Source: a virus. From it: a stretch of 64,000 bases of DNA. This document shows positions 12,814-14,942 of this stretch, piece by piece (the first letter of the stretch is position 1; each line of letters opens with the position of its first letter). The notes below the pieces were generated by a model. That model was not told the DNA's origin and made no database searches. It was given only the letters and a program-made list of their open reading frames with translations. Where the stretch lies: positions 1-64,000 of IMG/VR virus record IMGVR_UViG_3300031566_000014. One strand, given 5' to 3'. Both the position numbers and the translations under genes were made by a program.

Positions 12814-12934
12814 GGTGCCCTGCGGGAATCGAACCCGCACCTCCGGAGCCGTCCTGCCCGTCGGCAGGCATTGCCCCGGCGAGGCGTCCACAGGTGCCGT
12901 GCGCACGGTCCTGACGCTTACCTCCGAGGGCACC
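12814..12934 (-). ncRNA. tRNA-like structured RNA with expanded D and anticodon arms
   Basis: GGTGCCCT/AGGGCACC acceptor, GAGG/CCTC D stem, CCGGG/TCCGG anticodon stem, AGGT variable loop, GCGGG-TTCGATT-CCCGC T arm; both loops replaced by hairpins. Confidence 0.7.
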
Positions 12935-13364: not shown

Positions 13365-13417
13365 GTCGTCTCCTTTCGCCCGTCAGGGCAGTTGGGTGAA
13401 CTCGCGCCCGCGGAGTG

Positions 13418-14137
13418 TCATGGGGGAGACTCCTGATATGGAGCGGTCCCCGGGGGTTGAACCCGGCTCTCAGCGCTGGAAGCGCCGCGTGTCACCATCG
13501 ACACTTGGACCGCTGGCTTTGGGTAGGGGGAACATCGCAGGCCAAGGCGAGTGGCCTTTTTCATGCCATGGCGAGACAGCGCCCGCCAGTACAGGTGCTT
13601 GCCTTCGTCGTAGTGGGGCTGAATATCCCAGCGGCGGTGTTCATGCCTGAGTTGGTTCGGACTACGGGTGCCCCACAGGTTGAAACACATACGCCCCGGC
13701 ACAAACTTGCCGTTCACGACGAGGCCGTCTTGCGCCCGTTCGCGCTGGCCGTCGTAGTTCCATGAAGCGGCTTGGTAGATGCCGCCGTGGTGTCCTTGAG
13801 TCCAATCGGCGTAAGACACTAGCAAGTCGAAGGTTCCGCGTCGTCGCACATCTTCGCAAGTCGCAGAGATCAGCCCTGTCAATGGCACGGAAACATCGTC
13901 ACGCCGCACCAAGCGTTCGAGTTCCAGCACGGCTTCTGACCAGCGTGTGGGGGGTATGCCGAACACACAGGCGGCGACGGCTTCCCCAAGGTTCCCGAAT
14001 AGGCCGCCAGGCTGGTGCAGGGTGCCACAGGCTTCTATGACAGAAGGCCAGCGGTGGCTGTAGTGGTACTTCATCACCAGCGCCTTGGCAGCGTCCAGTT
14101 GCCCAAAGGAGACATGAAGCGCGCATGTGGGCTTCAT
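13418..14137 (-). CDS. mom: Mom-family (GNAT-fold) DNA adenine hypermodification enzyme
   Basis: HYS, LELERL, VSYADxxQGHxGxIYQAASWxYxG, KHxY and terminal YPK motifs typical of phage Mu Mom homologues. Confidence 0.88.
   Translation of the reverse strand: MKPTCALHVSFGQLDAAKALVMKYHYSHRWPSVIEACGTLHQPGGLFGNLGEAVAACVFGIPPTRWSEAVLELERLVRRDDVSVPLTGLISATCEDVRRRGTFDLLVSYADWTQGHHGGIYQAASWNYDGQRERAQDGLVVNGKFVPGRMCFNLWGTRSPNQLRHEHRRWDIQPHYDEGKHLYWRALSRHGMKKATRLGLRCSPYPKPAVQVSMVTRGASSAESRVQPPGTAPYQESPP
13439..13513 (-). tRNA. tRNA-Gly(TCC), non-canonical core, encoded CCA; lies inside the mom CDS
   Basis: GCGGTCC/GGACCGC acceptor, U73, CCA, CGGCG-CT TCC AG-CGCTG anticodon arm, CCGGG-TTCAACC-CCCGG T arm; 75 nt. 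Confidence 0.85.
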
Positions 14138-14607
14138 TGGGCAGACTCCTGATAGCTCCGCTTCCCGTGCGCGGCGTTGTGGCAGCGCCGGCACAGCCGC
14201 CGCGGCTTCCTGCCGTCGTAGGCTTCATGGTGATTCTGGGAGACGTGCCGCCCGCACACCTCGCACGGGCCAGCGGGCAGGGTGCCGCGCTGCACCCGCT
14301 TGTTGTCGGTGTCCTGGTGTCGAGCTTCGATGGGGTGATTGTGCCGCCAGCGCTTCACGGCGGCGTAGCCCGTGGCGTAGCCGTGTCTCTGCTGGCTGAT
14401 GACGTTCTCGGCGCTTTGGCAGGCTCGGCAGCGCCCCGATGGCGTGCCGTCCTTGCGGAAGCGCCAGAACTCATCGCTCGGTTTTTCTTGGCCGCACTTG
14501 GAGCAGACAAAGAGGGGACCTGGCCGGGCCGGTGGACACACTCGGTCGAGGGCAACGAGAGGGGCGGCGCCGGCCAGGAGCTTGTCGTTTTGCGTCGTCA
14601 CGGTCAC
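14134..14607 (-). CDS. HNH-type nuclease / Zn-finger protein
   Basis: CSKC...CRAC finger plus CEVCG...HHEAY..KP..LCRRCH...H. Confidence 0.7.
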   Translation of the reverse strand: MTVTTQNDKLLAGAAPLVALDRVCPPARPGPLFVCSKCGQEKPSDEFWRFRKDGTPSGRCRACQSAENVISQQRHGYATGYAAVKRWRHNHPIEARHQDTDNKRVQRGTLPAGPCEVCGRHVSQNHHEAYDGRKPRRLCRRCHNAAHGKRSYQESAQ

Positions 14608-14638
14608 TGGGGAACCCTCGACTCGTGTGTCCAAGAGG

Positions 14639-14667
14639 AGTATACCCCACGCGTTGGCGCTTGTCAA
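14639..14667 (-). promoter_or_regulatory. sigma70-type promoter upstream of the HNH-mom-tRNA-replication genes
   Basis: TTGACA-17 bp-TATACT in an intergenic gap. Confidence 0.85.
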
Positions 14668-14699
14668 GGGCCGGAAACAAAATCGGCGCGCCCTTTCTC

Positions 14700-14942
14700 C
14701 TACTCGCCGGCCTTGTCGAGGATCGCGCGGGCGGCGTTCACGGCGTCGTACAGCAGGCTCCAATCCTCCATGTGCACCGGTCCGCCCGCATGGTGCTTTG
14801 CGTCCACGGTGCGAGCGCAGCGCGCCAACTCCCTCAGTGCCTCCTTGGTCCCCTTGGGGCAGACCTCGGCCTCTCGATAGAGGGGGTAGTGACAGGCTTG
14901 GCACTCAAAGCCGGTGGGTTCGCCGCAGATTGGGCATTTCAC
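14700..14942 (-). CDS. small Zn-finger protein
   Basis: CPIC...CQAC; GTGA overlap. Confidence 0.65.
   Translation of the reverse strand: MKCPICGEPTGFECQACHYPLYREAEVCPKGTKEALRELARCARTVDAKHHAGGPVHMEDWSLLYDAVNAARAILDKAGE

Follow-up and report, generated by a model that had tools for sequence, protein, structure and literature searches.

A phage tRNA-Gly gene inside the mom reading frame belongs to a family of Mom-linked RNAs and is the probable glycine carrier of Mom

Where does the Mom enzyme of a phage, which disguises DNA, obtain its glycine when a tRNA-Gly gene lies within the mom reading frame itself? That Mom uses a charged glycine tRNA was settled only in 2026, when Mu Mom was reported to transfer glycine from Gly-tRNA-Gly (Silva et al., Nat Commun 2026, PMC13219725), and the phage was assumed to take this tRNA from its host. 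All three E. coli tRNA-Gly isoacceptors were accepted by Mu Mom and Gly-tRNA-Ala was rejected, and Silva et al. suggest that the enzyme reads the acceptor end; gene context and tRNA-like RNAs are not mentioned in their paper (PMC13219725). The same work confirms the donor, Gly-tRNA(Gly), that an earlier note on the DNA analysed here had named. From another direction, a conserved 76-bp tRNA-Gly-like “pseudo-tRNA” has been described as embedded in a mom homologue of the Dehalococcoides ssrA islands (McMurdie et al., BMC Genomics 2011, PMC3146451), a locus for which these authors proposed no function. Our full-text literature searches returned no paper linking a phage-borne tRNA-Gly to Mom, and none that joins the Mu Mom donor work of 2026 with the Dehalococcoides locus of 2011.

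The DNA under study, hereafter the window, is a stretch of 64,000 nucleotides comprising the first 64 kb of one 78,510-bp virus record, whose completeness is estimated at 91% (CheckV). Among the sequencing runs listed, the sequence is contained in three soil DNA metagenome runs only, and no RNA run contains it.

The mom gene and the tRNA in its 3′ tail

The reading frame that holds the tRNA (ORF 13418..14194, minus strand) encodes a Mom homologue, as the earlier note had claimed: it matches the Pfam Mom family PF25680 with 69.2 bits against a cut-off of 27.1, and phrog_1384 with 85.8 bits. The PF25680 match spans residues 32-226 of the 258-aa ORF and ends at the motif YPK. The gene probably starts at the ATG at 14137, behind an AGGAG, which gives a protein of 239 aa, numbered accordingly below. 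The parts of the gene and the RNA within it are:

13517..14137, minus strand: conserved Mom domain, residues 1-207, ending in YPK (PF25680, phrog_1384)
13418..13516, minus strand: unconserved 32-residue mom tail, P208-P239, with the TGA stop; reads through the tRNA and the left repeat
13439..13513, minus strand: tRNA-Gly(UCC), 75 nt, with encoded CCA (ARAGORN); contained in full within the mom 3′ tail

In Mu Mom, YPK forms the very end of the protein. Among the 675 Mom homologues in our protein collection, many terminate 5-10 residues past this motif and others carry tails of 25-35 residues; several of these tails resemble that of the window Mom, while others differ or are absent. A single-sequence PDB search with the window Mom returned no Mom structure. 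A clade profile of its close homologues matches 8bv8, the crystal structure of Mu Mom, with E 1.2e-5; in this alignment, which scores only 27.9 bits, Mu R111, D149 and Y159 correspond to the identical residues R75, D111 and Y121, Mu S124 corresponds to T87, and the essential R151 falls on T113 and is unmatched. The last of these correspondences was counted against the donor model discussed below.

The junction between protein and RNA is tight. K207 of YPK occupies 13519..13517 and P208 occupies 13516..13514, and the next codon, GCG, is already tRNA bases 1-3, such that the tRNA begins 3 nt past the YPK codons. The mom frame stays open across all 75 tRNA bases and a further 18 before it ends at the TGA at 13420..13418. 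The stop thus sits 19 nt past the tRNA, and excising the tRNA would indeed remove the stop codon from the mom message, as the earlier note had stated.

The RNA has an acceptor stem of 7 bp, a D stem of 4 bp and anticodon and T stems of 5 bp each, made of 20 Watson-Crick pairs and one G-U, with an anticodon loop of 7 nt (CUUCCAG), a T loop UUCAACC, a variable loop AGAG, G18G19, the discriminator U73 and an encoded CCA. The fold of lowest energy (-39.2 kcal/mol, z -3.2) is the cloverleaf, in which C14 pairs with G21 as a fifth D-stem pair. In nearly all tRNAs the core carries U8, A14 and A21. The core read here is A8, A9, C14 and G21, with G15 and G48 in place of an R15-Y48 pair. Probably because of these atypical bases at 8/14/21 and 15/48, the Rfam tRNA model RF00005 gives no match to the window tRNA-Gly, either at the gathering threshold or at E<=10; it does detect both tRNA-Met genes of the window. 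The decoding features U33, U34 and the 7-nt loop are retained. Also present are all six elements that we take to be the bacterial glycyl-tRNA synthetase (GlyRS) identity set, namely G1-C72, C2-G71, G3-C70, U73, C35 and C36. The description in the earlier note, of a complete 75-nt tRNA-Gly(UCC) in the 3′ end of the mom ORF with A8, a D stem extended to 5 bp by C14/G21, G48 opposite G15, the GlyRS identity elements and an encoded CCA, therefore agrees in every part with the ARAGORN call, the minimum-energy cloverleaf, the open frame and the bases themselves.

Across the whole record, ARAGORN finds three tRNAs, of which the tRNA-Gly(UCC) is encoded on the minus strand and the other two, both tRNA-Met, on the plus strand. 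The mom gene belongs to a leftward early gene group in which the order, with the tRNA included, is Erf-like annealing protein, 690-residue ORF, O-like replication initiator, 110-residue ORF of unknown function, tRNA, mom and HNH; the 690-residue ORF was taken for a methyltransferase in the earlier note. Around the mom-tRNA unit we locate the following features:

14134..14508, minus strand: HNH endonuclease gene, directly upstream of mom, joined to it by an ATGA stop/start overlap
14639..14667, minus strand: sigma-70-like promoter match (TTGACA, 17 nt, TATACT), ahead of HNH-mom-tRNA
13418..13438, no strand: left copy of a 21-bp direct repeat, minus-strand sequence TATCAGGAGTCTCCCCCATGA, directly after the tRNA CCA
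14134..14154, no strand: right copy of the 21-bp direct repeat (repeat family D2, repeat search)
13383..13421, minus strand: putative 12-codon mini-ORF, starting at the ATG of the left repeat and overlapping the mom stop as ATGA

The HNH assignment comes from phrog_2340 and phrog_2255, which match residues 133-250 of the ORF 14134..14904; the true start of the gene lies upstream of 14508. The promoter match scores 11/12 in a consensus scan that found one such site where 0.2 are expected, and is a pattern match only. The two repeat copies agree at 19/21 bases and flank a 716-bp mom-tRNA unit, the left copy containing a ribosome-binding site, an ATG and the mom stop, the right copy the HNH stop together with the ribosome-binding site and ATG of mom. 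This bracketing of mom and tRNA as a cassette was counted in favour of the donor model. A contig joint that skips mom and the tRNA was seen in the soil runs; with its low depth and short sides it is too weak to count.

Mom-linked RNAs across 235 loci

We assembled 235 Mom loci from metagenomes, viral contigs and genomes. In four of them ARAGORN detects a tRNA-Gly that starts a few bases at most from the YPK end, and in four more one that overlaps the mom 5′ end; tRNAs of other specificities lie nearby in two loci only, where mom stands among tRNA arrays. The sequence that follows YPK shows many further elements that ARAGORN misses. A scan for the acceptor stem and T arm alone returned 750 matches in loci and genome, a background too high to be of use, and it was replaced by a scan restricted to mom 3′ ends and then by covariance models. 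Two models, R1 (class A elements only, as defined below) and R2 (the window type with class B), were searched against the window and the 235 loci, 1.09 Mb in all, on both strands.

The merged matches number 95, and every one lies on the mom strand (a single minus-strand match, with E 0.67, was left out of this set). Of the 90 that abut mom, 68 do so at the 3′ end and 22 lie over the 5′ end; the remaining five of the 95 are found farther downstream. When identical proteins are removed and only genes with judgeable flanks are kept, 61 of 158 distinct Mom genes (about 39%) have an abutting element. Its presence tracks clades in the Mom tree, and it is absent from many clades, including enterobacterial, Bacillales and actinobacterial groups and the nearest relatives of the window Mom (loci L016 and L009). 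Since some 60% of Mom genes, that of Mu included, have no such RNA, the RNA is not required for Mom activity. Standard tools see little of this family: on 15 related loci RF00005 matches just two, the canonical tRNA-Gly genes of L044 and L131, and most Mom-linked RNAs are missed by standard tRNA finders and by Rfam alike.

The elements fall into two structural classes. Class A is 69 nt long. Its 7-bp acceptor stem starts GCG and bases 8-9 are missing; there is a small arm of GUC/GAC, a stem of 4-5 bp that carries CC in its loop of 3-6 nt, and a T stem of 5 bp closed by UGCAACC or AGCAUAC, with U73 followed by CCA. A cultured strain, Bradyrhizobium sp. Tv2a-2 (locus L166), is among the bearers of a class A element. 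Class B is 76 nt long and forms a full cloverleaf with A8-A9, a 7-nt loop NN-N-CC-A-N, the variable loop AGAG and a conserved bulged A in the T stem. Both classes covary strongly. In class A, 99.8% of cells are paired and 12 of 19 pairs show compensatory change, with acceptor pairs 1-3 invariant and pairs 4-7 varying freely with compensation; none of 500 shuffles was as good, and slid registers were 34-52% paired. In class B the corresponding values are 96.1% and 15 of 21 pairs, with 0/500 shuffles as good and slid registers 33-42% paired. The entropy of class A elements, taken by codon position, is even (0.63, 0.76, 0.60), whereas the 23 codons with which mom ends in these loci have the third-position excess of a coding sequence (1.12, 0.92, 1.61), from which we conclude that the constraint acts on the RNA and not on a peptide. 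The comparison of Mom homologues that the earlier note had proposed has hence yielded a same-strand, covarying tRNA-Gly or tRNA-Gly-like RNA that bears no codon-position signature.

What the family keeps and what it gives up is informative. Among 88 distinct elements, 81 start with GCG, 82 have CGC at 70-72, 85 have U73 and 70 encode CCA. Of the 48 whose loop is 7 nt long, 47 retain C35 and 46 retain C36, but only 17 have U33, and position 34 is A in 22, U in 19, C in six and G in one; the other 40 have loops of 3-6 or 8 nt, or no clear hairpin. The conserved bases are, on our understanding of tRNA identity, the bacterial GlyRS set plus the acceptor end, and the drifting parts are presumably those needed for decoding. 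Loss of constraint on U33, N34 and loop length, next to retention of this set and of CCA, points to RNAs that are charged and do not decode.

The Dehalococcoides pseudo-tRNA resembles these elements in being a tRNA-Gly-like locus within the reading frame of a mom homologue, and a Dehalococcoidia locus in our set (L182) bears a class B element. It differs in lying within the first 150 bp of mom and on an integrative island, whereas the window element belongs to a phage, occupies the 3′ end of mom and has the most tRNA-like form. These islands, together with the general habit of integrating elements to target tRNA genes, are what would recommend a different origin, in which the window tRNA would be what is left of a phage attachment site, or else a tRNA gene picked up from a host where integration had taken place. 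We consider this origin highly improbable and rejected it: no tyrosine integrase (PF00589) was found in the 78.5-kb record, the tRNA is whole and stands 13 kb into that 91%-complete sequence, amid replication and recombination genes, and its relatives are deformed RNAs that would be unusable as host tRNA genes.

Reading-frame overlap and the window copy

The overlap with mom could be read as the primary fact, with no RNA gene at all and the cloverleaf a chance property of a conserved C-terminal Mom peptide. In keeping with this, the mom frame crosses the element without a stop in 55 of 63 distinct 3′-end cases, and the other two frames do so in 37 and 32. Against it stand the compensatory changes in both classes, the even codon-position entropy, the occupation by the element classes of three different frames relative to mom, the several relatives in which the mom frame stops inside the element, and Mu Mom, which has nothing beyond YPK. 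These observations rule out the protein-tail explanation and leave it a negligible probability. For the same reasons the description “dual-coded” in the earlier note proved too strong, as the tail peptide is unconserved. At the 5′ end of mom, the CGCUCCA of the element can encode the Leu-His of the N-terminal LHF motif of Mom, and CCATGA often joins an element to the next gene. In our reading, the overlap reflects dense packing about an RNA under constraint and would have no second protein-coding function.

The embedding might also be a control device, by which each transcript yields either enzyme or donor, or by which the tRNA-like end is glycylated in place; we regard this as unlikely. Were it so, excision of the tRNA would leave a mom message without a stop, on which ribosomes would stall and whose product would be tagged for destruction, and a toxic enzyme would be kept in step with its private glycine carrier. 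In the in-place variant, the tRNA-like end would be kept on the message and Mom would meet its donor while being made.

A related proposal, to which we assign a rather low probability, is that the element acts in cis on the mom transcript instead of serving as donor, either as a processing or stability signal that would recruit RNase P or shield the 3′ end, or as a sensor or decoy that would bind Mom or GlyRS and so tune mom or the next gene. The elements always lie within the mom ORF or adjoin it, at one end or the other and often with the CCATGA link, which speaks for such a signal, and the loss of the stop codon upon excision and the deformation of many relatives beyond what a normal tRNA would tolerate are likewise in its favour. 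A mere structural signal, however, would have no need of the presumed GlyRS identity set, U73 and CCA, which stay fixed. Moreover, a role in cis is compatible with the donor role and does not exclude it.

The window copy belongs to this family in spite of its more regular appearance. R1, built without it, scores it at 52.6 bits (E 2e-9), and R2 at 80.4 bits; R1 picks up no further tRNA, either in the window or in the loci to which it was applied, among them L054 and L061 with their tRNA arrays. The bases A8-A9 and the D arm GUGUCGAnGGUGACAC are common to the window tRNA-Gly and the element of L186, whose Mom is just 31% identical to that of the window. The variable loop AGAG is that of class B, and the 3′ half is that of class A. 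Given that these core hallmarks are shared with L186 and with the Mom-linked classes, the odd core is a family trait. Judged by its sequence features, the window copy is the most canonical and most tRNA-like member of the family.

This regularity qualifies the suggestion of the earlier note that the RNA is diverted from translation. The suggestion fits most relatives, with their lost U33, free N34 and loops of 3-6 nt, but in the window copy itself the anticodon loop is canonical, the T loop is normal and G18G19 is present, and, with U33 and a 7-nt loop retained, this copy may still decode. Should it, then, be taken as a phage tRNA-Gly(UCC) of the usual kind, used to translate GGA and GGG codons, its adjacency to mom being without functional meaning? 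The canonical loops, G18G19 and encoded CCA would suit such a role, as would the two tRNA-Met genes in the same phage and the share of GGA and GGG, together 35% of its glycine codons. Codon usage was dropped as an arbiter, since the individual values (GGA 11%, GGG 24%) fit decoding and donor roles alike. Like ordinary phage tRNAs, the window RNA is a tRNA gene with encoded CCA in a phage genome. Ordinary phage tRNAs usually come in arrays and match codon needs. The window tRNA-Gly, in contrast, is single and breaks the U8-A14-A21 core, and its family abuts one enzyme gene across many unrelated phages. The A8-A9, C14 and G21 that it has in common with Mom-linked RNAs of distant phages, its R1 score from a model of non-decoding relatives only, its escape from the Rfam tRNA model and its start 3 nt past the YPK codons, as in relatives, all speak against a purely translational role, which we hold to be quite improbable.

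A probable glycine donor for Mom

The occurrence of tRNA-Gly look-alikes beside about four in ten sampled Mom genes leads us to the view that they are most likely Mom's own glycine carriers, and the comparative evidence, which comes from sequences, strongly supports such a private role. For the window, we consider it probable that mom and the tRNA form one compact unit, in which the phage-encoded tRNA-Gly would be the glycine carrier of its Mom. A leftward early transcript, possibly from the promoter-like site at 14667, would span HNH, mom and the tRNA. Host tRNA-processing enzymes would excise the 75-nt RNA, its CCA already encoded, and host glycyl-tRNA synthetase would charge it by way of G1-C72, C2-G71, G3-C70, U73, C35 and C36. 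Mom would then move the glycyl group from the 3′ end of the RNA onto adenine N6 in double-stranded DNA, where the adduct would rearrange to N6-carbamoylmethyl-adenine, as for Mu Mom. The phage would thereby supply the donor along with the enzyme. The odd core (A8, C14, G21) may lower the use of the RNA by EF-Tu and the ribosome, by analogy with the staphylococcal cell-wall tRNA-Gly; such reduced translational use, like processing, charging and use by Mom, is something that we infer for the window RNA.

The comparison with Mu both supports and complicates this model. The window Mom and Mu Mom belong to the same family, PF25680, and in both the domain ends at YPK; we assume that the donor chemistry is the same. 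Mu differs in having no tRNA gene beside mom and in taking any host tRNA-Gly isoacceptor, whereas in the window phage the RNA is encoded inside the mom ORF. That Mu Mom works with each of the three E. coli isoacceptors weighs against the model, which offers no reason why a phage should need a donor of its own. The published Mom assay allows a direct test of the donor question.

The closest functional analogy is that of the non-proteogenic tRNA-Gly isoacceptors of S. aureus, which serve FmhB, FemA and FemB (Rietmeyer et al., NAR 2021, PMC7826273). These have changes in the D and T arms, are poorly used by EF-Tu and the ribosome, and are confined to staphylococci (PMC7826273). The likeness holds in outline, as dedicated glycine carriers for a tRNA-dependent transferase, and is a functional analogy only. 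The staphylococcal RNAs are chromosomal genes of one bacterial lineage and act in cell-wall synthesis; the window RNA, on the other hand, is virus-encoded and fused to the gene of its enzyme, and its acceptor would be DNA.

If the donor model is true, DNA hypermodification in many phages draws on a donor that they encode themselves, which changes the picture of a reaction fed by host tRNA, and a large, co-evolving family of virus-encoded glycine carriers is fused to mom genes. The staphylococcal cell-wall tRNAs, so far the one known case of tRNAs reserved for a transferase, would be joined by a second, the first in which such tRNAs are encoded by viruses and aimed at DNA. The parts that the elements keep (acceptor stem, U73, CCA, C35 and C36), set against those left free, would serve as a natural map of the requirements of GlyRS and Mom. 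Because gene callers carry mom on across the elements, current annotations at such loci are wrong.

A repeat-bracketed unit of mom and its tRNA

The Mom-family gene (mom), together with the 75-nt tRNA-Gly(UCC) inside its 3' tail (13439-13513, minus strand), is enclosed exactly by two copies of a short repeat.

13418-13438 and 14134-14154: the two copies of the 21-bp repeat, bracketing mom plus the tRNA

In run X1, made from the source soil sample, a low-depth contig of 151 nt joins position 13395 to 14174, across a joint with short sides and low similarity; the mom-tRNA unit is missing from it as a whole, and 21 other letters stand at the joint. The contig could represent a relative that does not carry the cassette, but flanks this short and this dissimilar weaken such a reading.

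At the other end of the gene, codons 6-9 of mom read GCG CTT CAT GTC (A-L-H-V; 14111-14122, minus strand) and resemble the CGCUCCA-UUU junction, coding for L-H-F, of other loci, where a tRNA-like element overlaps the 5' end of mom. These codons may be the relic of an upstream element, or they may be just the protein motif itself.

A possible promoter and the upstream HNH gene

14639-14667, minus strand: near-consensus sigma-70-like promoter match (TTGACA, 17 nt, TATACT), within the long listed open reading frame of the HNH endonuclease gene directly upstream of mom

Because this match sits inside the listed HNH frame, the sequence suggests that the true HNH start lies downstream of the predicted promoter, and that HNH, mom and the tRNA would form a single transcription unit.

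Relatives at other Mom loci

Among the 235 Mom loci compared, a class A element (the 69-nt structural class) follows a Mom homologue in a cultured bacterium, Bradyrhizobium sp. Tv2a-2 (NZ_AXAI01000008.1; L166:3068-3136), a strain suited to checking expression of the class A RNA. The 76-nt class B element occurs twice on one Planctomycetaceae MAG contig (L220:2908-2983 and L220:5135-5210), the copies being 2.2 kb apart and only one of them at mom. At L061:437-4800, mom is embedded in an array of tRNA genes (Ser, Ser, Leu, His, mom, Ser, Pro, Pro, Leu, Leu) from which tRNA-Gly is absent; this locus is a counter-example to a simple Gly linkage of mom.

Other RNAs of the window

12814-12934, minus strand: putative tRNA-scaffold RNA lying 500 nt downstream from the tRNA-Gly, in which hairpins replace the D loop and the anticodon loop
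29118-29193, plus strand: second tRNA-Met

The putative scaffold RNA is ruled out as a member of the Mom-linked family, since it is matched neither by the class A covariance model R1 (E<=0.1) nor by R2, built from the window type and class B (E<=1). In the second tRNA-Met, A1 and C72 are unpaired at the top of the acceptor stem, and its Rfam score, 45 bits, is below that of the first.
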